Shown here piece by piece: positions 3,639 through 64,000 of a stretch of DNA of 64,000 nt. Numbering within the stretch: position 1 is the first letter of the stretch; the number at the start of each line of letters is the position of its first letter. The notes under the pieces are model-generated. The model saw nothing but the letters and a program-made list of their open reading frames with translations, was not told where the DNA came from and did no database searches. The stretch lies in the NCBI RefSeq assembly GCF_044324875.1, contig NZ_CP172185.1; one strand, 5' to 3'. Both the position numbers and the translations under genes were made by a program. The stretch is from Escherichia coli (GTDB taxonomy: Bacteria > Pseudomonadota > Gammaproteobacteria > Enterobacterales > Enterobacteriaceae).

Positions 3639-4232
3639 ATGGAAAAATACCTGCACCTGTTAAGTCGGGGAGATAAAATTGGCCTGACATTGATTCGTCT
3701 GAGTATTGCGATTGTTTTTATGTGGATTGGGTTATTAAAGTTTGTCCCTTACGAGGCAGACAGCATTACACCATTCGTCGCAAACAGTCCACTAATGTCG
3801 TTCTTTTATGAACACCCGGAAGACTATAAACAGTATCTGACTCACGAAGGCGAATACAAACCAGAAGCAAGGGCATGGCAAACGGCCAATAATACCTATG
3901 GTTTTTCCAACGGTCTTGGCGTCGTGGAGGTGATTATTGCTCTGCTGGTTTTGGCTAATCCTGTCAATCGCTGGTTAGGTTTATTGGGAGGGCTGATGGC
4001 ATTTACCACACCGTTGGTAACACTCTCATTTTTAATCACCACCCCGGAGGCATGGGTACCCGCATTGGGTGACGCTCATCATGGTTTCCCTTATTTATCC
4101 GGTGCTGGTCGCCTGGTATTGAAAGATACTCTGATGCTGGCAGGTGCTGTCATGATAATGGCAGATTCGGCGCGGGAAATTCTTAAACAACGCAGTAATG
4201 AATCCAGTTCAACGTTAAAAACTGAATATTGA
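3639..4232 (+). CDS. rclC: Inner-membrane protein RclC (197 aa)
   Basis: ORF 3630..4232, start trimmed to MEKYLHLL; hydrophobic segments. Confidence 0.8.
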   Translation: MEKYLHLLSRGDKIGLTLIRLSIAIVFMWIGLLKFVPYEADSITPFVANSPLMSFFYEHPEDYKQYLTHEGEYKPEARAWQTANNTYGFSNGLGVVEVIIALLVLANPVNRWLGLLGGLMAFTTPLVTLSFLITTPEAWVPALGDAHHGFPYLSGAGRLVLKDTLMLAGAVMIMADSAREILKQRSNESSSTLKTEY

Positions 4233-51278: not shown

Positions 51279-51893
51279 TTACACAGCGACAAAAGCCATC
51301 CCTGTAAACGTTCGTCGCGGGTTGCCACGTTCAATCTGGTGATGGAACATTCGCCGCTGCGATTTCAGCGCCGCGCTATTTTCCTGTTGCTGTTGCTCCA
51401 GCTTCCAGGCAATCAGCAATCGCGCCAGCCGTTTGTTGGCATGTTGGCTGCGCTCTGACTGAACCTTCACGCTAATCCCGGATGCCAGATGCGTGGCGCG
51501 TACCGCCGAGTCGGTTTTATTGACATGTTGACCGCCCGGCCCCGACGAACGCAGCGTCTCATAACGGATTGCATCCGATTGTTCCTGCTCATCAGCAGTA
51601 AAACGCCCAATGCCCAGAAACCAGTTTTTGCGCCCATGATGAGGCCGATACGGACTCGGACAAATCCACTGGATAGTGCCGCACCAACTTTCGCTTAATG
51701 CCCATGCGTTATCGCCATCCAGAGAAATCAGCGCTGAACGCAACGTGTCAGAGTAGCGACCCGTTTCTGTTTCCAGCACCGTTATCGCGACGTCTTGTCG
51801 GGTAGCTTCTTTAATCAACCTGTCCAGCGCCTTTTTCACTGCGAGGCAACATTCTTCCGGCCCCTGCGCTGAGGAGAGTTGTAGCAAGATCAT
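51279..51893 (-). CDS. prfH: Peptide chain release factor homolog PrfH, full length (204 aa)
   Basis: GGQ motif ([16 protein letters not shown]); ATG overlaps rtcB2 stop (ATGA). Confidence 0.85.
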
Positions 51894-53041
51894 CCTTTTT
51901 TCCCTCCACTGTTTTTGAGCGTTAGCACCGGACGCAGCCGCGCGACAGGAATAATTAAACCGGCTTGCACCAGACATTGCACCACGCTTTCAGCCGATTT
52001 ATAGGCTTGTGGCGCTTCTTCAAAGATGAGTTGTTTATCGCGACAAATTACCCGACTGCCAAGTTCAGTACGCGAGAGTTGCGTCGCCGTGCATTTCGCT
52101 GCCAGACGCCCTTTACACTCGGTGCGCCCCCATTTACGCCCTGCCCCATGCGCCAGCGAGTGGAGCGTTTTTTCGTTCGCAACAGGCTGTACAAGCCAGG
52201 AGTAATCACCGCGTGAACCGGGAATAATCACCAGACCGTTGTCATCCGGCGTGGCACCTTTACGATGCAACCAACCCTGTTGATCGCCGATTTGGCACGC
52301 GCTAACAAAGTTATGCGCCACATCCAGAACCGGACTTCCGGTGGCCTTAACTTGTTGCATTATGCGCAAAGCAATCATCTGGCGATTAATACGCGCAAAC
52401 GCTAGCACATCGTCATGTTCCGCAATATACCGTAGCGCGTCGTCACTGCCTTCAGGCAAACCATGATGCGAAAACGAGGCAATATGCCGCTGTAAAATAG
52501 ACTGCCCCAACCCCCTCGAGCCGCTATGAACCAGCAGTTGCAGATGCTGCGCATCCAGACCTGCCAGTGCAAACAGTTCAGCGTCGATGATTTCATCAAC
52601 TTGTTGCAGTTCTGCGAAGTGGTTTCCGCCACCGATAGAGCCAAGCGAGCTGCGCCACGGATGCTGTGCAAATGCTGACGGCAGGTTTTCCTCCAGCCAG
52701 CTTTCTTCAGCAACGTCATCCAAAGCTGATAATCGCTTTTCAAACTTATCGGCGTTGTATTTGCGAGCGAGAATATCTGTTTGCCATAGCGCCATGCCGC
52801 AGCCGATATCATTGCCGACCAGTGCCGGGTAAAAACGGCCTGCGGAGAAGAACGCTGCGCCAATCGGGTAGCCGCGTCCGGGATGTAAATCTGGCATCCC
52901 TACTACGCGCTGCATGTTGGGTAAATTTGCCGTGGTGTGTAATTGTTGGATCGCTAAACTCTCGATCCACAGGTCATCAGATGCGATGGTAAATACCGCA
53001 TCGGATAAGGGACGAATATATTTGCCCATAAACCATTCCAT
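51890..53041 (-). CDS. rtcB2: RtcB-family RNA ligase paralog RtcB2, full length (start may be 53029)
   Basis: RtcB motifs ([38 protein letters not shown]). Confidence 0.8.
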
Positions 53042-53684: not shown

Positions 53685-54080
53685 AAAACGCATGCGAAAC
53701 GCTTCTGCCATTTTCCCAATTTTATGCATTTGGTTGTTATCTCGAGCCAGTTTATGAGGTTCAGGTTTCAGAATGGCAATGAGCAACCATGCTTGCTCAT
53801 CAAACGCACCCTGACAATATACCAAATGCGCTTCGTCATTCGTTCTGCTGAATTGGCGCAACTGTGGCGGAAATGGATTATTCTAATTTGCCAGATGAAT
53901 ATGAGCAACTCGCTCAAATTTGATTAATGGCCAGGTAAACGAGTCGTCGTAGAGTGCATCGCGACCAAATATATCTGGCAAAACACCGTCACGCTTATAG
54001 GAAATAAAATCCGCCGTTAACGCTTCAAGTTCCTCTGCTGTAAGTTGCAGGCGAATGAGTTTTGTTTTGAATACCCGCAT
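53685..54080 (-). pseudogene. yafO: YafO toxin gene with in-frame amber codon at codon 66 (65 + 66 sense codons either side of TAG)
   Basis: MRVFKTKLIRLQ...IHLAN then TAG at 53883..53885, then same-frame NNPFPPQL...AEAFRMRF*; total 132 codons. Confidence 0.7.
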
Positions 54081-54427: not shown

Positions 54428-55483
54428 TCATAATCCCAGCACCAGTTGTCTTTCCATTTGAGGGTCAAGCAACGTCACATGCAGCCCCACCAGTCGCACA
54501 CCGCGCCCGCCGCGGCGTTCATCCCAGGTTTTACGCGCGGTGGCGATTAGATCAGCTTTATTCAGCCGTGGCCAGACGTGCTCCTGAGTGGTTTGCTGGA
54601 AATCGTCGAACTTTAATTTCACTCCCTGACGGGCAATCAGTAAATCAGGTTTTACCTTTGCCAGACGGCGTTCAAGTTCCGGGTACAGCCGCTCGATAAT
54701 CGCTTCACATTCAGACCAGTGATGAATATCTTCCGCCATCGTGCGTTCCACGCCGACGGATTTTCGCAACCGTTCGCTGTTAACGTCGCGCTCGTCAATC
54801 CCCTGACTACGCTCCCACAAAATGCGGCCAAATTTGCCAAAACGTTTGAGCAGAGTCACCAGATCACACTTTTGCACATCACCGCAGGTCCGCAGCCCCA
54901 TCGCTTCCAGTTTTGCCGCCGAGACTTTGCCGACGCCAGGAATTTTTGCCAGCGGTAAGGTTTGCAGAAATGCCGGAACTTCTGCCGGAGTAATCACAAA
55001 CTGACCGTTGGGTTTATTCATGTCGGAAGCGATTTTAGCGAGAAACTTTACCGGCGCAACGCCCGCAGACGCCGTCAGTTGCAGCTCGTTGAAGATTGTC
55101 TGGCGGATTTCCTGGGCGATGAGGGTCGCAGAACCGTGGCAATGCACACTATCGGTGACGTCGAGATAGGCTTCATCCAGTGATAACGGTTCAATGCGCG
55201 AGGTATAGCGCGAGAAAATTTCGCGGATATGATTTGAGGCTTCTTTGTAGGCGTCAAAGCGCCCTGGAAGCAGCGTGAGATGTGGGCAAAATTTGAGCGC
55301 CATCCCTGTCGGCATAGCGCTACGTACGCCAAATTTACGCGCGGGATAATTGGCGGTGCTGATCACCCCCCGACGTTCGCGGCTGCCGCCAATAGCAATA
55401 GGGATATCGCGCAGGGCAGGATTGTCGCGCATCTCCACCGCTGCGAAAAAGCAGTCCATATCCACATGAATGATTTTACGCAT
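54428..55483 (-). CDS. dinB: DNA polymerase IV
   Basis: 351-aa Y-family polymerase ([17 protein letters not shown]). Confidence 0.95.
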
Positions 55484-55553: not shown

Positions 55554-56300
55554 TTAACGCGTTCGCTGCGAAAGCACCTGCTGCTTATCCAGCTTTTGCA
55601 CCAGCGGTTGCACCACTTTATCCCCATGCTGACCAAAGTATTGATACAGCGTATCGGACGCACTTTTGGTCAGCACCATAATCTCAATGCGCCGGTTGCC
55701 CGCGCTTTGCGGATTTTTGGCATCCAGCAGCATCTGGTCCGCCATTGCACTTACCTGCATCACTTTATCTTCCGGCATTCCGGCCTCTTCCAGCACCCGA
55801 CGAGCTGAAAGCGCGCGATCGCCCGAAAGGTTCCAGTTGTTGTAGATATTGTTTTTGTAGGCCATCGCATCGGTATGCCCGGTGATGATGATCTTATTGT
55901 CGAGCGAATCAAAAACCGGTGCTAACTCCACCAGCAAAGTTTTAAAGAACGGCATAATCTGCGCGCTGCCGCGTTCAAACATATTGCGGTTCTGGTCATC
56001 TTTAATCAGCACGCGCAGTCCCTGGGGAACAATCTCCATCTCCAGATTCGCTTCCATATGCGCATCACGGGCAATGGTGTTGATACTGGTTGCCAGCTCG
56101 CCAAGCTCAGTAGCGGATTTCTTCTTCAGCAGCGCCGTTTTCTCGTTGACGTCATGCGCTTTTTTCTCCGTCTCTTCCGGCACCGCCACGGTGGCAGGTT
56201 TTGGCGGATGAGACGGTCTGATTTTATTTAACGGCGACAGCCCGCCACCGTTAAAAATCGACTGCCCGTGCAGCGCGGCGATAATGCTTTCACGCTCGGA
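55554..56300 (-). pseudogene. lafU: 3' remnant of a lateral-flagellar MotB-like gene (OmpA-like domain only; junction approximate)
   Basis: ...NWNLSGDRALSARRVLEEAGMP... peptidoglycan-binding domain; no N-terminal transmembrane segment; upstream part of ORF is antisense to the fhiA remnant. Confidence 0.65.
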
Positions 56301-56309
56301 TTTACTGAC

Positions 56310-58023
56310 GCTGTTGACAATCAACTTTATCGTCGTCACCAAAGGGGCCGAGCGTATTTCCGAGGTTTCTGCCCGCTTTACCTTAGACGCGATGCCTGGC
56401 AAACAGATGGCGATTGACGCCGATCTTAACGCCGGGTTGATCAACCAGGCGCAGGCGCAAACCCGGCGCAAAGATGTTGCCAGCGAGGCCGATTTCTACG
56501 GCGCGATGGACGGGGCATCGAAGTTTGTGCGCGGGGATGCCATCGCCGGGATGATGATTCTGGCGATCAACCTGATCGGCGGCGTCTGTATCGGGATCTT
56601 CAAATACAACCTGAGCGCCGACGCCGCCTTCCAGCAGTATGTACTGATGACCATCGGCGACGGGCTGGTGGCGCAGATCCCTTCTCTGCTGCTCTCCACC
56701 GCAGCGGCGATTATCGTCACCCGCGTCAGCGACAACGGCGATATCGCCCATGATGTGCGCCACCAGCTGCTGGCAAGCCCGTCGGTGCTCTACACCGCCA
56801 CCGGGATCATGTTTGTGCTGGCGGTTGTGCCGGGGATGCCGCATCTGCCGTTTTTGCTGTTCAGCGCCCTGCTTGGTTTTACCGGCTGGCGGATGAGCAA
56901 ACGCCCGCAGGCGGCGGAGGCGGAAGAGAAAAGCCTCGAAACACTGACCCGAACCATCACCGAAACCAGCGAGCAACAGGTCAGTTGGGAAACTATTCCG
57001 CTGATCGAGCCCATCAGCTTAAGCCTCGGCTACAAGCTGGTGGCGCTGGTGGACAAAGCACAGGGTAACCCGCTCACCCAGCGGATTCGCGGCGTGCGGC
57101 AGGTGATTTCTGACGGCAACGGCGTGCTGCTGCCGGAGATCCGCATTCGGGAAAACTTCCGCCTCAAGCCCAGCCAGTACGCCATTTTCATCAATGGCAT
57201 TAAGGCTGATGAAGCGGATATTCCGGCGGATAAACTGATGGCCCTGCCCTCCAGCGAAACCTACGGCGAGATTGACGGCGTGCTGGGGAACGACCCGGCG
57301 TACGGGATGCCGGTGACCTGGATCCAGCCCGCGCAGAAAGCGAAGGCGCTGAATATGGGGTATCAGGTGATCGACAGCGCCAGCGTGATTGCCACCCATG
57401 TGAACAAGATTGTCCGCAGCTATATTCCTGATTTGTTTAACTATGATGACATCACGCAGTTGCATAACCGTTTGTCGTCGATGGCACCGCGCCTGGCGGA
57501 AGATTTGAGCGCGGCGCTCAATTACAGCCAATTGCTGAAAGTGTACCGGGCGCTGCTGACCGAAGGCGTTTCCCTGCGCGATATTGTCACCATCGCCACC
57601 GTGCTGGTCGCCAGTAGCACAGTGACCAAAGATCATATCCTGCTGGCGGCCGATGTGCGCCTGGCATTGCGGCGCAGCATTACCCATCCGTTCGTTCGCA
57701 AGCAGGAGCTGACGGTGTATACGCTGAATAATGAGCTGGAAAATCTGCTCACCAACGTGGTGAATCAGGCGCAACAGGGCGGGAAAGTGATGCTCGACAG
57801 CGTGCCGGTTGACCCGAATATGCTCAACCAGTTCCAGAGTACGATGCCGCAGGTGAAGGAGCAGATGAAAGCAGCGGGGAAAGCCCCTGTGCTGCTGGTG
57901 CCGCCGCAGCTGCGTCCTTTGCTGGCGCGTTATGCAAGGTTGTTTGCGCCGGGTCTGCATGTGCTGTCGTATAACGAAGTGCCGGATGAGCTGGAGTTGA
58001 AGATTATGGGGGCGTTGAGTTGA
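56310..58023 (+). pseudogene. fhiA: 5'-truncated FlhA-family flagellar export gate gene (about 130 N-terminal codons missing; junction approximate)
   Basis: FlhA motifs from ...VTKGAERISEVSARFTLDAMPGKQMAIDADL to C-terminus; ORF begins without transmembrane segments 1-3. Confidence 0.65.
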
Positions 58024-58029
58024 TGGCCT

Positions 58030-58360
58030 TTGGGGCGAATCCGGCATCGGTGCACAATTGCCGGATGCGGCGTGAACGCCTTATCCGGCCTACCGATCCG
58101 GCACAAGTTTGTAGGCATGATAAGACGCGTCAGCGTCGCATCAGGCATCTGCGCACAATTGCCGGATGCGGTGTGAACGCCTTATCCAGCCCACCGATCC
58201 GGCACAGGTTTGTAGGCATGATAAGACGCGCCAGCGTCGCATCAGGCACCGGTGCACAATTGCCGGATGCGGTGTGAACGCCTTATCCGGCCCACCGATC
58301 CGGCACAAGTTTGTAGGCATGATAAGACGCGCCTGCGTCGCATCAGGCATCCGCGCACAA
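58030..58360. repeat. Tandem REP/BIME array, about 3.3 copies of a 92-101 bp unit
   Basis: Repeated gcacaattgccggatgcgg(c/t)gtgaacgccttatccggcc...tgtaggcatgataagacgcg...cgtcgcatcaggca. Confidence 0.85.
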
Positions 58361-58858
58361 TTATAAAATAATACGCTCCCCGGCACTAAAATCCGTTATG
58401 TCTCCCGCCCAATCAATGGGATATAACCCTCGCGCTACATCGCGATGGAACGTTGAGAATGGCCAATCACTCACCTGCTTTACCCAGCCATGTTTCACTG
58501 GATTTATATAAATATAATCAACATGATGGCGATAATCTTTTGTATTGCGAATGGCATGCTCCCAAAAACGCGGTTGCCAGATATTTTTCAATCCGCAAGC
58601 ATGGGTGAACTGCTTTTTAATCTCCCGCCAGCGAGAGGAAAAATCATCATCGCTTTCGGGTAATGTCCAGATACAGTGCATATGCTCTGGCAAAACTACC
58701 CAGGCGTTAATTTCAAAAGGTCTGGCCTGCTTAACTTTAATAATGGCGTTACGGAGTGTCTGGTACTGGGTGGTCAAAAGTTGGCTTCGACGATTCCGTA
58801 AATTTACCGTGAAAAACCATGTTCCCCCCTTGATGTAATAACGACGATATTCAGACAT
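58361..58858 (-). CDS. rayT: REP-associated tyrosine transposase (RAYT)
   Basis: HuH motif (HMHCI) and catalytic Tyr region; flanked on both sides by REP sequences. Confidence 0.75.
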   Translation of the reverse strand: MSEYRRYYIKGGTWFFTVNLRNRRSQLLTTQYQTLRNAIIKVKQARPFEINAWVVLPEHMHCIWTLPESDDDFSSRWREIKKQFTHACGLKNIWQPRFWEHAIRNTKDYRHHVDYIYINPVKHGWVKQVSDWPFSTFHRDVARGLYPIDWAGDITDFSAGERIIL

Positions 58859-58952
58859 GGCGACTCCTTTTTCTCAACGATAAGAAGAAAAGGAAAAGTC
58901 GACAATGAAGTTGTGTTATATCGGGAAAGCAGCTCGCAAAAAATTCGCAGAC

Positions 58953-59034
58953 TCGTAGGCATGATAAGACGCGGCAGCGTCGCATCAGGCATCGGTGCAC
59001 TATTGCCGGATGCGGCGTGAACGCCTTATCCGTC
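58953..59034. repeat. REP/BIME element
   Basis: tgtaggcatgataagacgcggcagcgtcgcatcaggcat...gccggatgcggcgtgaacgccttatccg. Confidence 0.8.
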
Positions 59035-59784
59035 CTACAAAATCGTCTCTTCCGTCAAAATCCTGCGCGCGCCTAAAAAATGATCCTGCCAGAAAGGTTC
59101 AGCTAACCGACTTACCCGAATGGTTTCCCCGGTGCGCGGCGACTCGATAAACTGACCGTCTCCCAGATACACGCCCATATGATCGGCAATCTCACGGCTG
59201 TGAATATGGAAAAACAGCAAATCTCCCCGGCGCAGGTCGTTATTCGCCACAATCGTTGCCCGATGGTAGTGATACATCTCATTGGCCGTGCGCGGGAGCT
59301 TCGCCTCGAGGATCTTGTTGTAGGCATAAAAAACCAACCCGCTACAGTCGAAGCCTTGATCGGGCCGCGTGCCGCCCCAGACGTAAGGCTTACCAAGCTG
59401 CTGCTCCAGGCGGTGAATCGCCACTTCGGTGATGTTGTGCAGATGGTCGCTGCTTAAGAAATGGTTGTTCTCCGCCAGCGCCTGCCAGCGTCTGTCACTC
59501 GCCTTGAGCGGCGCAGGAAACCATTCTGGATGCTGTTTTATCTGTTCGCGGTTGTGCTGGCGCAGCGCCTTTCTGCTTTCGGCATTGCCTTCCACAATAT
59601 AGCTGGCCTGTTTTTTCAGATGGGTTTGGTACTGTTTTAATAAACGCGCACGGTTTTGCATCCGCTGGCGGGCGGCGTAGCTGAAAGAGATATGTGATGT
59701 GGTGGCGCTGGCGAGTAAAGGGAGCAAAACGCATAACGAAAACACGCCTGGATGCAGAAATCTGCCGTGAAAGAACGAAGACAT
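59035..59784 (-). CDS. yafL: NlpC/P60-family putative lipoprotein peptidase (249 aa)
   Basis: NlpC/P60 motifs (WGGT...GFDCSGLV, HMGVYLGDGQFIES). Confidence 0.8.
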   Translation of the reverse strand: MSSFFHGRFLHPGVFSLCVLLPLLASATTSHISFSYAARQRMQNRARLLKQYQTHLKKQASYIVEGNAESRKALRQHNREQIKQHPEWFPAPLKASDRRWQALAENNHFLSSDHLHNITEVAIHRLEQQLGKPYVWGGTRPDQGFDCSGLVFYAYNKILEAKLPRTANEMYHYHRATIVANNDLRRGDLLFFHIHSREIADHMGVYLGDGQFIESPRTGETIRVSRLAEPFWQDHFLGARRILTEETIL

Positions 59785-60084
59785 GAAGGACATAAACCGG
59801 CTGAATGAAGGGGAGAATTTTAAAAGACCGGAGGAGTAAGCGGGATTATTAATTGCTTATTTGCATATTACTATTGAGGTTTCATAATCTTAGGAAATAA
59901 ATGATACATGCGCTTTTCGGACTAATGAAAACTGCCCCTGTGCTAAATTTGTAAACCCTGCGCCGACAGGCTTGCGTAAAACTCTTTTGGTGATAATGTG
60001 AGCCTTCCAAATCCAGACTATTCCGATTTGGGATCCATTTTGCCGTCCTGGCGTGTGTAACCGTTTTATCAAGGAATAAGCAGT

Positions 60085-61599: not shown

Positions 61600-61745
61600 G
61601 GCGAAGATTGATTTAAGTATTTTCAGGTCGGATGCGGCGTAAACGCATTATTCGGCCTACGGTTCGGGTACAGATTTGTAGGCATGATAAGACGCGTCAG
61701 CGTCGCATCAGGCATCAGCGCACAAATGCCGGATGCGGCGTAAAC
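61600..61745. repeat. REP/BIME cluster; its last palindromic unit carries the IS insertion
   Basis: ggtcggatgcggcgtaaacgc..., tgtaggcatgataagacgcg..., gccggatgcggcgtaaac. Confidence 0.8.
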
Positions 61746-62500
<755 letters not shown>

Positions 62501-62604
62501 ATCAGCATACTTGTCCTTAGCCTTCTGCAGTGACAGCTGGTAGTACAGCGTGCTTCTGGCCAGCCCTGCAGCCTTTAACAGGTCAGACTGGCAGTGTCCG
62601 CACC

Positions 62605-63135
62605 TCAGGCTCCGGATGACTTTCGTTTTTTCTCCAGCTCCTGGCGCTTTTTTTCCAGGAGATGCTCCTGCATGGCTTTCAGATATGCATTTTCTGCGCG
62701 AAGATAACGCAGCTCATTCTTCATCTCTTCCGGCGTCATGTTTGCCTCGTTTTCATGGGTATCATCAGAACGGGTCATGCTTTTCTCCTTCCAGCGCCTG
62801 ATAAAGGCCTCATTACCAGATTTGCGGTAGCCTTTTATCCAGTTTTTAACCGTGTTGTGGCTGGGAATGTTAAACCGGGCAGCTACCCGGGGTAGAGACT
62901 CAGAATGCCCGAGAGCATAAAGAACCACGCAAAGTTTATCTTCAGGAGAATAGCTACGCTTGTGTCTGCAATCCAGTGCCCGAGGACCGTGAAGAAGAAA
63001 AAGATTAATCCAGTGTGAGAGGCTGGTGTGAGAAAGTTGAAAGAGTTTTGCCGTAGAAATGATGCCTGCATGACCGGCCAGGTAGTGATTTACAGCGGCA
63101 AGTTTTACTTCAAATGAATGTTTCATAAACTGCAC
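62605..63135 (-). CDS. IS3-family transposase OrfA (HTH)
   Basis: 176-aa ORF ending at the GGAAAAAAAG frameshift window. Confidence 0.7.
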   Translation of the reverse strand: MQFMKHSFEVKLAAVNHYLAGHAGIISTAKLFQLSHTSLSHWINLFLLHGPRALDCRHKRSYSPEDKLCVVLYALGHSESLPRVAARFNIPSHNTVKNWIKGYRKSGNEAFIRRWKEKSMTRSDDTHENEANMTPEEMKNELRYLRAENAYLKAMQEHLLEKKRQELEKKRKSSGA

Positions 63136-63203: not shown

Positions 63204-63782
63204 TTACTTAACCATCTCTTTTTCAATTAACTGGATCAGGATATGGATCACTTTAATGTGGATCTCCTGAATGCGGTCGGCATAACCAAAGTGCGGTACG
63301 CGAATTTCGATATCCGCTGTGCCAGCCATTTTACCGCCGTCTTTACCGGTCAGGGTGATCACTTTCATCCCCTTCTCACGCGCCGCCGCGATCGCTTTGA
63401 TCACGTTTGCAGAGTTACCTGAGGTGGAGATCCCCAGCAGTACATCGCCTTCGCGACCTACCGCTTCAACGTAACGGGAGAAAATATCATTGAAACCAAA
63501 ATCGTTACCGACGCAGGAAATATGACTAACGTCGGAAATGGCAATCGCCGGGTAGCCCGGACGGTTTTCACGGTAGCGACCGGTCAACTCTTCGGCAAAG
63601 TGCATAGCGTCGCAATGGGAGCCGCCGTTGCCGCAGGAAAGCACTTTGCCACCAGCTTTAAAGCTGTCTGCTAACAGGACCGCCGCGCGCTGAATGGCGT
63701 GAATATTGGCGTCATCTTTTAAAAAGTTAGCCAGCGTTTCCGCCGCTTCGTTCAGTTCGTTACGAATAAGATCCTGGTACAT
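63204..63782 (-). CDS. gmhA: Phosphoheptose isomerase (192 aa from [10 protein letters not shown])
   Basis: SIS-domain protein; track ORF 63204..63944 extends upstream of the true start. Confidence 0.9.
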
Positions 63783-64000
63783 GAGGATATCCTTCAGCAT
63801 AAATGTAATAGACAAAATGCAGTGTACCGGATACCGCCAAAAGCGAGAAGTACGGGCAGGTGCTATGACCAGGACTTTTTGACCTGAAGTGCGGATAAAA
63901 ACAGCAACAATGTGAGCTTTGTTGTAATTATATTGTAAACACATTGCTAAATGTTTTTACATCCACTACAACCATATCATCACAAGTGGTCAGACCTCCT

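Follow-up and report, generated by a model that had tools for sequence, protein, structure and literature searches.

The region 55554..58023 of the window, by which the whole 64,000-nucleotide stretch of Escherichia coli DNA analysed here is meant, is almost certainly the Flag-2 deletion scar known as fhiA-mbhA or lfhA-lafU in E. coli K-12, the product of one 35.6-kb deletion. It is composed of a MotB-like lafU fragment on the minus strand and an FlhA-like lfhA fragment on the plus strand, which are fused at a common ATC (Table 1). With the K-12 scar published, the feature of the window is already known; the present analysis established the anatomy of the scar, where the deletion starts and ends, how large the missing block is and which genes it contained, and how often the junction occurs in E. 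coli. Two further results of this analysis are the identity of the junction across genera and the dN/dS of the fragments, which resembles that of functional genes.

Table 1. Coordinates of the features at the Flag-2 site of the window.
Feature	Position	Strand	Remarks
dinB	54428..55483	-	borders the Flag-2 site on the left; conserved in this position in Escherichia
lafU (mbhA) remnant	55554..56322	-	last base of codon 52, codons 53-307 and stop
Chance ATG and 12 codons (MLSRSDLLTLLT)	56284..56319	+	lafU antisense; extends the lfhA frame to 579 aa
Deletion junction	56320..56322	.	ATC found at both breakpoints of the intact cluster; sole exact microhomology (nucleotide mapping)
lafU-frame extension into the lfhA antisense strand	56323..56471	-	mechanical ORF start at TTG 56471
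lfhA (fhiA) remnant	56320..58023	+	codons 131-697 and stop, 1,704 nt
Antisense ORF, 342 aa	57019..58047	-	artefact of lfhA codon usage
REP/BIME array, 101-nt period	58036..58396	.	right neighbour of the site; region 58024..58858
rayT	58361..58858	-	follows the REP/BIME array, right of the Flag-2 site

Two gene fragments fused at a trinucleotide

The open reading frame in the lafU frame (55554..56471, minus strand, 305 aa) matches the Pfam family OmpA (PF00691, E 1.4e-14), with no domain N-terminal of it. Alignment with the intact LafU of strain NCTC10973, a protein of 307 aa, reveals that homology in the window starts at residue 53. The remnant retains the OmpA-like peptidoglycan-binding domain; the N-terminal membrane helix with its FADF aspartate is gone, and the deleted residues 1-52 comprise the segment AFADFTLAMMALFMTLW. 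The domain MotB_plug (PF13677) is present in intact LafU proteins and absent from the remnants. Neither the helix with its aspartate, nor the plug, nor an adjacent motA-type gene, as expected for a functional MotB-type stator, could be found, and lafT is absent from the window. In other strains, NCBI annotation starts a 261-aa 'LafU' from the GTG at 56339.

The lfhA-frame ORF (56284..58023, plus strand, 579 aa) covers positions 99-656 of the 657 positions of the FHIPEP model (PF00771, E 3.4e-189). Compared to the intact LfhA of NCTC10973 (697 aa), homology begins at residue 131 and continues with 8 differences in 567 residues. The missing 130 codons correspond to the N-terminal membrane helices, and the remnant is annotated by NCBI in other strains as 'incomplete; missing N-terminus'. 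A functional export gate of the FlhA/FHIPEP type is not present in the window: 130 residues are gone, and flhB and fliPQR neither adjoin the fragment nor occur elsewhere in the window. As a start, the ATG at 56284 lacks conservation: it is replaced by a non-ATG (Ile) codon in the lineages of two other loci (L104 and L106), where ORF callers choose other starts.

Pfam searches, alignment and nucleotide mapping agree with the initial annotation, according to which a 5'-truncated fhiA-like gene and a 3' remnant of lafU adjoin on opposite strands. Full-length genes, which might have emerged from other start positions, were rejected, since homology ends at the junction and the upstream extensions are antisense of the respective other gene; FHIPEP remains without model positions 1-98, and LafU without its membrane helix and MotB_plug.

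The long antisense ORF across lfhA (57019..58047) had been regarded as an artefact from the outset, and this view is borne out by the lack of a Pfam match and of conservation in other alleles. The ORF is exactly in register with the lfhA codons and stays open only because the lfhA sense frame contains 2 TTA/CTA/TCA codons in 568. Of 16 other E. coli alleles, 13 interrupt it with 1-3 stops, and in Citrobacter 11-12 stops fall within it; third codon positions of lfhA take 232 of the 267 polymorphic sites in this comparison. A second antisense ORF (56383..56976) was likewise rejected as a gene, as no Pfam match was obtained. The ORFs of 579 aa, 305/261 aa and 342 aa should not be called genes, and the locus should be annotated as a pseudogene pair.

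Extent of the deletion and its frequency in E. coli

The deletion was mapped against the intact Flag-2 cluster of E. coli NCTC10973, the kind of alignment that had initially been proposed as a check. Both end points could be located, with the ATC at each of them. The ATC is embedded in an imperfect direct repeat matching at 11 of 15 positions, CTGnTGAnnATCnAC. Ren et al. are said to have described the junction in 2005 as a '3-bp repeat'. A junction around 56290..56320 had been estimated, which gives the general place correctly, but the exact site is 56320..56322, at the upper edge of the estimate. The deletion measures 35,582 bp and removed 40 whole CDS, which lie between lafU and flhA in NCTC10973, together with codons 1-130 of lfhA and codons 1-52 of lafU, of which only the third base of codon 52 is left. 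Accordingly, the loss of the lateral-flagellar (Flag-2) cluster was rightly recognized in the initial annotation, but its count of about 20 missing genes was too low. The cluster is present between the two fragments in other strains, and 58 translations of long interior ORFs, searched with tblastn against the 64-kb window, yielded 0 matches to interior genes and REP elements only.

The ancestral locus comprised some 42 genes of a second flagellar system, of the lateral type, and was bounded by lafU (MotB-like stator, pointing outward to the left) and lfhA (FlhA export gate, pointing outward to the right). A single 35.6-kb deletion then fused lafU codon 52/53 with lfhA codon 130/131 at the 3-bp ATC, the original event probably being an illegitimate recombination at minimal microhomology.

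The surroundings correspond to those of known scars. The order dinB-scar-rayT/yafL is that of the annotated strains M7424, JM83 and NCTC10973, and the fragments adjoin in divergent orientation at the conserved 3-bp repeat. Structurally, no difference from K-12 was found: the same fragments, divergently oriented, are flanked by dinB to the left and by rayT and yafL to the right. Fragment sizes (769 nt of lafU, about 1,700 nt of lfhA) and the short direct repeat at the junction equal those of the published K-12 scar. In sequence, the copy of the window shares 95% identity with K-12 and 98.7% with the closest complete genomes. No gap interrupts the alignment with the K-12 strain JM83 across the junction, and nine scar genomes share the same NCBI annotation. 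Beyond the scar, the genome of the window is devoid of dinJ-yafQ and possesses an intact rtcB.

An 80-nt probe spanning the junction gave full-length matches in 4,085 of 5,426 complete E. coli genomes. With 4,070-4,085 matches in one piece, the junction occurs in about 75% of these genomes; the two ends lie apart in roughly 1,300.

In the literature, fhiA and mbhA are described as two terminal remnants in K-12 and B (PMC3032704, which likewise cites Ren et al. 2005), and an ST131 strain carries fragments of about 1,700 bp (lfhA) and 769 bp (lafU), sizes as in the window (PMC5369007). The consulted sections of De Maayer et al. (2020, PMC6993521) report, citing Ren et al. (2005, J Bacteriol 187:1430), that an lfhA-lafU deletion bordered by direct repeats occurs in Escherichia and Shigella. 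According to the same sections, the deletion was seen in 531 of 4,028 Enterobacterales strains, mostly from taxa which also contain complete flag-2 loci, and truncated lfhA and lafU were present in 76 of 100 E. coli and 50 of 66 Citrobacter Clade A strains without the locus (PMC6993521). There, fragments were scored by BLAST; neither a junction at the same nucleotide across genera nor a functional-gene-like dN/dS of the fragments appears in the sections consulted (PMC6993521).

The junction in other genera and the preservation of the fragments

The junction is identical, with no gap in the alignment, in two Escherichia species (E. coli and E. albertii), in Atlantibacter subterranea and a second Atlantibacter-like species, in Kluyvera ascorbata, and in two further lineages, one close to isolate H16N7 and one of 74% identity. 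In Citrobacter gillenii and C. amalonaticus, the protein N-termini indicate the same junction. A scan of genome contigs with LfhA, in which general FlhA motifs predominated, gave at least 4 close loci among the matches listed. Scar and intact cluster both occur in E. coli, A. subterranea, an H16N7-like lineage, a Citrobacter lineage, K. ascorbata, C. amalonaticus and C. farmeri. Compared to the intact cluster of the same species, the scar flanks are 99.1%, 98.9% and 99.2% identical right up to the junction, and in several lineages with both states the remnant and intact proteins share 98.6-99.1% identity. Import of a foreign scar allele into the other genera was considered and rejected, since no foreign tract is discernible; in Atlantibacter, 44 and 42 nt at the junction equal the intact cluster of the same species. 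Given that the same junction is found in other genera within flanks of the local species, a single accident in the ancestor of E. coli is not an explanation.

Between genera, dS amounts to 1 or more and dN/dS to 0.03-0.2, every scar retaining exactly 1,704 nt of lfhA, and seven scars of different species are free of indels. Within one species, dS between scar and intact allele is only 0.03. In the second Atlantibacter-like species, whose closest intact relative listed is 94.8% identical, the remnant is undamaged and displays a dN/dS of 0.028. Not all features of the site are shared: the start of the lafU stump varies by genus (GTG, ATG or elsewhere), and rayT adjoins the site in E. coli but not in other genera.

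In E. coli, 10 of 10 sampled scar alleles are free of stops and indels. The dN/dS among scar alleles, 0.029 for lfhA and 0.048 for lafU, is close to that among intact alleles (0.025 and 0.056), with dS of 0.15-0.2 in this comparison, and dN is 0.0062 among scar alleles versus 0.0054 among intact ones. K-12, which has the scar, and NCTC10973, which has the cluster, do not differ at all over 1,893 nt of one flank and 1,704 nt of the opposite one, and a further scar-intact pair, FDA1284 and SCU-204, has identical or nearly identical flanks. Damaged forms exist as well. The E. albertii remnant shows a 22-nt deletion and an early stop in lafU, and E. coli remnant ORFs include premature stops giving 501 aa (794 distinct sequences), 416 aa (581) and 475 aa (53), internal insertions and deletions, and in-frame deletions of 15-125 aa.

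The flanks represent mosaics of short recombination tracts, as illustrated by 15 SNPs clustered in 110 bp, and the interior of the Flag-2 cluster is as diverse as the flanks in E. coli. Linkage between scar or intact state and SNPs is weak, the mean r2 being 0.13-0.15 within 200 bp of the junction versus 0.05 further away. Half of the E. coli scar alleles (5 of 10) carry variants at lafU positions 69, 72 and 75 that none of the 6 intact alleles has, and E. albertii shares them; the sample is too small for significance.

The stumps are best read as pseudogenes, probably non-functional as flagellar parts and without partner genes. However, they are too well kept for pseudogenes common by descent to all E. 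coli phylogroups, which counts against this best explanation. Within E. coli, the favoured course of events is that one scar allele may have moved between backgrounds through homologous recombination in the flanks, the Flag-2 cluster being lost and regained on short time scales. Such a turnover would keep the stumps similar to functional genes.

Possible origins of the shared junction

The microhomology is not sufficient as a cause of the shared junction. Between lafU and lfhA, 484 pairs of 15-mers match at 11 or more of 15 positions, equal to or better than the pair at the junction, and an exact 11-bp direct repeat between both genes was left unused. Taken together, the identical junction across genera, flanks of the same species, dN/dS of 0.03-0.05 and an unremarkable 3-bp microhomology leave either a recurrent excision or an ancient polymorphism.

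It is possible, and here tentatively proposed, that the same 35.6-kb deletion arises independently in lineages with an intact Flag-2 cluster, so that the scars are young. This would imply an excision that is exact to the nucleotide, has been repeated in at least six enterobacterial genera and is not directed by microhomology; candidates for directing it are DNA structure or an enzyme recognising the conserved sequences for two membrane helices. Consistent with independent events are the gap-free alignment of the junction across genera, Citrobacter included, scar flanks taken from the same species with 98.9-99.2% identity to the intact cluster, the coexistence of both states in several lineages, and near-identical scar-intact pairs in E. 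coli, such as K-12/NCTC10973 and FDA1284/SCU-204. Old neutral DNA could not combine an intergenus dS of at least 1 with a dN/dS of 0.03-0.2, and the fact that the microhomology is not special also points to another determinant. The lafU breakpoint does fall within the loop of a DNA hairpin, and this hairpin is significant (z = -4.4; none of 200 shuffled sequences folds as well), but the lfhA breakpoint is devoid of significant structure (z = -0.5).

No mechanism is known for such an excision. A recombinase within the cluster, one conceivable agent, was not detected: Pfam searches of six non-flagellar or unnamed CDS of the cluster revealed no recombinase domain of the kind that an integrative element would be expected to encode, and two of the six (309 aa and 325 aa) gave no Pfam match. 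RayT was rejected as the agent, since it adjoins the site only in Escherichia and is not a general neighbour. Resemblances to the cleavage sites of IS608 and to Xer sites were dropped as numerology. In the skin element of Bacillus (sigK) and the nifD element of Anabaena, programmed excision by an element-encoded recombinase restores a gene. The Flag-2 scar would be comparable to these elements in the loss of a large block with exactness to the nucleotide and hardly any sequence identity at the crossover. The comparison goes no further than analogy: at the scar two genes are truncated, and no recombinase domain was found in the scanned cluster genes. Furthermore, the lafU variants at 69, 72 and 75 hint at descent from one scar allele, though not significantly, and ST131 has been inferred to have regained the cluster by recombination (PMC5369007), so that changes of state need no new deletions.

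Alternatively, one ancient deletion may have predated the split of the genera, with presence and absence of the cluster passed as a polymorphism through every speciation, which seems only slightly less probable. Homologous recombination would homogenise the flanks within each species as far as the two alleles are alike and would switch states, and selection would purge defects from the flanks during phases with an intact cluster. For a junction with only 3 bp of microhomology, identity by descent is the simplest fit. The side-by-side occurrence of both states in the seven lineages named above, the mosaic flanks, the weak linkage of state and SNPs with slightly higher values near the junction, and a cluster interior as diverse as the flanks in E. 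coli are likewise in line with an old polymorphism. However, it must have survived in at least seven lineages across saturated synonymous divergence (dS of at least 1), and a single deletion maintained in this way would itself be unusual. Moreover, a rough estimate with the usual recombination parameters of E. coli suggests that clearly more non-synonymous change should be expected in scar alleles than the small excess of dN observed, and the remnant of the second Atlantibacter-like species is undamaged despite the distance of that species from its closest listed intact relative.

A co-option of LafU' and LfhA' after an old deletion, with selection acting on the stump proteins, would account for the low dN/dS (0.03-0.05 in E. 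coli, 0.03-0.2 between genera), for the absence of indels in seven scars and for the treatment of the lafU stump as an ordinary coding sequence by NCBI, but is very improbable in view of the lack of a conserved start, a promoter signal not above chance (3 promoter-like sites at the stumps versus 2.2 expected), the absence of membrane anchor and channel aspartate from LafU' and of the first 130 residues from LfhA', common broken variants (premature stops, in-frame deletions, the E. albertii frameshift), the recent common ancestry of scar and intact alleles within species (dS 0.03) and the recurrence of the mbhA locus in metabolic-engineering papers on E. coli, presumably as a neutral integration site.

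For the window itself the scar is of little import, as it represents a textbook pseudogene pair. Its wider interest may lie in a 40-gene machine that about one in four E. coli genomes possesses and whose absence from all others, as well as from other genera, goes along with one exact junction, while the stumps do not decay. If the excision is indeed recurrent, it would constitute an undescribed way of making precise large deletions, and a whole flagellar system would be a precisely removable module. If one old event underlies all scars, the locus would represent a very long-lived presence/absence polymorphism, in which recombination keeps 'dead' DNA looking alive.

End points of the Flag-2 deletion

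In E. coli NCTC10973 the complete Flag-2 cluster (locus L002) lies between dinB and rayT, and 40 annotated CDS separate lafU from flhA (= lfhA). These encode stator, sigma factor, filament, hook, rod, rings, export apparatus and a sigma-54 activator, together with a few glycosylation and unknown genes. The break was placed by nucleotide alignment of the window with both ends of this cluster. The intact cluster reads ...GCTGTTGACAATC / CACAGCG... on the lafU side and ...CCTGATGATCATC / AACTTTAT... on the lfhA side, and the window reads ...GCTGTTGACAATCAACTTTAT... across the break, with the crossover located within an ATC common to both ends. LafU residues 53–307 and LfhA residues 131–697 are retained, while the LafU helix AFADFTLAMMALFMTLW is gone.

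The initial annotation had described a truncated flhA-like gene (fhiA) and a lafU remnant abutting on opposite strands. This observation is confirmed, and its interpretation as a deletion scar is supported; the end points and the shared ATC emerged from the alignment to a complete cluster that it had called for. The absence of the cluster between the fragments holds as well, but the estimate of about 20 genes was too low, given 40 genes and 35.6 kb in NCTC10973; the junction, put at around 56290..56320, is now fixed at 56320..56322.

The Flag-2 scar in E. coli is already known from the literature. PMC6993521 gives an account of this very deletion in Escherichia and Shigella, noting direct repeats at both ends and crediting Ren et al. 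2005; among 4,028 Enterobacterales strains it counts 531 with the truncated pair. The remnants in K-12 and B go by the names fhiA and mbhA in PMC3032704, and an ST131 strain has fragments of about 1,700 bp and 769 bp according to PMC5369007. The junction is spanned in one piece in 4,070–4,085 of 5,426 complete E. coli genomes (75%), with agreement between long probes and an 80-nt probe; in about 1,300 complete genomes the two ends are found apart, indicating that the cluster is present. In nine scar genomes the NCBI annotation has a 261-aa 'LafU' CDS together with an FlhA pseudogene labelled 'missing N-terminus', and the relative coordinates are the same in each.

Remnant frames and their surroundings

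Features of the scar region in the window and of the intact cluster in NCTC10973 (L002)
Feature	Location	Strand	Length	Remark
lafU-frame ORF	window 55554..56471	minus	305 aa	Pfam: OmpA only (PF00691, E 1.4e-14)
lfhA-frame ORF	window 56284..58023	plus	579 aa	Pfam: FHIPEP (PF00771, E 3.4e-189), aligned only from model position 99/657
Antisense ORF	window 57019..58047			no Pfam match
Retained half of inverted repeat	window 56298..56322			
rtcB	window 51890..53041		383 aa	intact
yafO ORF	window 53883..54080		65 aa	cut down
REP/BIME array	window 58024..58400			101-nt period, 3–4 copies
rayT	window 58361..58858	minus		
Further REP copy	window 58948..59038			past rayT
Site of absent dinJ-yafQ	window 59794..60084		~290 nt	
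REP-like matches	window 61617..61745			adjoin IS3-family element
IS3-family element	window 61778..63135			
IS3-family orfB	window 61778..62500	minus		
IS3-family orfA	window 62605..63135	minus		
gmhA/lpcA	window 63204..63944			
Intact lafU	L002 6931..7854	minus	307 aa	
Inverted repeat	L002 7675..7725			spans lafU breakpoint
Lost block	L002 7700..43281		35,582 bp	
Intact flhA (= lfhA)	L002 42889..44982	plus	697 aa	

Gene order around the scar is that of E. coli, with rtcB, yafP, a yafO stump, yafN and dinB to the left and a REP array, rayT, yafL, dpaA and yafJ to the right. No interior Flag-2 genes are found elsewhere within the 64-kb window. Over the scar stretch, identity is 98.7% to the nearest complete E. 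coli genomes (in a collection that excludes the window's own genome) and about 95% to K-12.

The 579-aa ORF exists only because a chance ATG on the lafU antisense strand sits in frame, 12 codons upstream; equally by accident, the lafU frame continues into antisense lfhA. The antisense ORF across the remnant is an artefact, as had been proposed: it shares the codon register of lfhA exactly, stays open solely through the scarcity of TTA/CTA/TCA codons in the lfhA sense frame (2 among 568), and is broken in 13 of the 16 other E. coli alleles, with 232 of 267 polymorphic sites at lfhA third codon positions. Promoter-like sites in the scar region show no excess over chance.

The tandem REP/BIME array directly follows the lfhA stop codon, and with the further copy rayT is bracketed by REPs; in the intact cluster of NCTC10973, REP copies occupy at least 6–7 intergenic spots. 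The toxin-antitoxin pair dinJ-yafQ, situated between yafL and dpaA in K-12 and NCTC10973, is missing in the window and in the nearest genome, M7424, where yafO carries an internal stop and has been annotated as a pseudogene. K-12 has merely rtcB and prfH fragments. The IS3-family element lies between yafJ and gmhA/lpcA, and in one related genome the scar region itself contains an IS1397-family element.

Stumps without decay and a junction shared across genera

The retained parts were aligned (A5, lfhA; A7, lafU) for 16 E. coli alleles, 10 with the scar and 6 intact, and for the scar allele of E. albertii. Stops or indels are absent from all 10 E. coli scar alleles, and dN/dS for lfhA and lafU is 0.029 and 0.048 between scars, compared with 0.025 and 0.056 between intact alleles. 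Decay of the stumps does occur: the E. albertii scar has lost 22 nt and has an early stop in lafU, and among E. coli remnant ORFs in the protein database there are some cut to 501, 475 or 416 aa and others with internal insertions or deletions. The E. coli dS of 0.15–0.2 (lfhA about 0.2, lafU about 0.15) seems high for comparisons within the species. Cluster interior and flanks are equally diverse. PMC6993521 gives Escherichia flag-2 loci as 2.6–5.8% richer in G+C than the genome.

Scar and intact alleles are interleaved without fixed differences among the aligned alleles; linkage of SNPs to either state is weak, and the flanks consist of short recombination tracts in a mosaic. K-12 (scar) is identical to NCTC10973 (intact) over 1,893 nt (dinB and lafU 3') and 1,704 nt (lfhA 3'), and FDA1284 (scar) equals SCU-204 (intact) across the lafU part and differs from it only once within the first 482 nt of lfhA. 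A synonymous TTT>TTC at lafU position 69 from the junction (A7; loci L102, L109) occurs in 5 of 10 E. coli scar alleles and in the E. albertii and A. subterranea scars, and in none of 6 intact E. coli alleles nor the intact A. subterranea allele, a bias which may be due to chance in this small sample.

Remnant-type proteins with the same fusion point (LfhA side ...LLT/INFIVVTKG, LafU side ...KL/IVNSVSK) are found well outside Escherichia. Junction DNA aligns gap-free in E. albertii, Atlantibacter subterranea, a second Atlantibacter-like species, Kluyvera ascorbata, a lineage close to isolate H16N7 and one further lineage (74% identity); in Citrobacter gillenii and C. amalonaticus the fusion is seen from protein N-termini. 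In Atlantibacter, ...GAT is followed by the T of lfhA codon ATT, leaving just AT as shared stretch. Since lafU-side neighbour genes vary from genus to genus, the scars are resident loci of each genome, and up to the junction itself their flanks match the intact cluster of their own species at 99% identity. Neutral drift after an old deletion is ruled out, since dS between genera is at least 1 with dN/dS of 0.03–0.2 and every scar compared retains exactly 1,704 nt of lfhA.

Origin of the scar

A hairpin formed by the inverted repeat GACGCTGT-(9 nt)-ACAGCGTC has the lafU breakpoint in its loop and is significant as a single-stranded DNA fold (z = -4.4); the lfhA breakpoint is not structured in this test. 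The repeat also occurs in Atlantibacter and Citrobacter farmeri, and in weaker form in Kluyvera. Microhomology is rejected as a sufficient cause: lafU and lfhA share 484 15-mer pairs that match at 11 or more of 15 positions and 67 that match at 12 or more, and they also have an exact direct repeat of 11 bp that is never used.

Three explanations remain. The scar could have arisen by recurrent site-directed excision; the Flag-2 cluster genes scanned contain no recombinase domain. One ancient deletion could instead be kept as a polymorphism across genera, with homologous recombination evening out the flanks and moving lineages from one state to the other; regain of the cluster is reported for ST131 (PMC5369007). 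That the stumps are functional is unlikely, because essential parts are missing, the start is not conserved and broken variants are frequent. Both the undecayed state of the stumps and the sharing of one identical junction by several genera are worth a simple experimental test.
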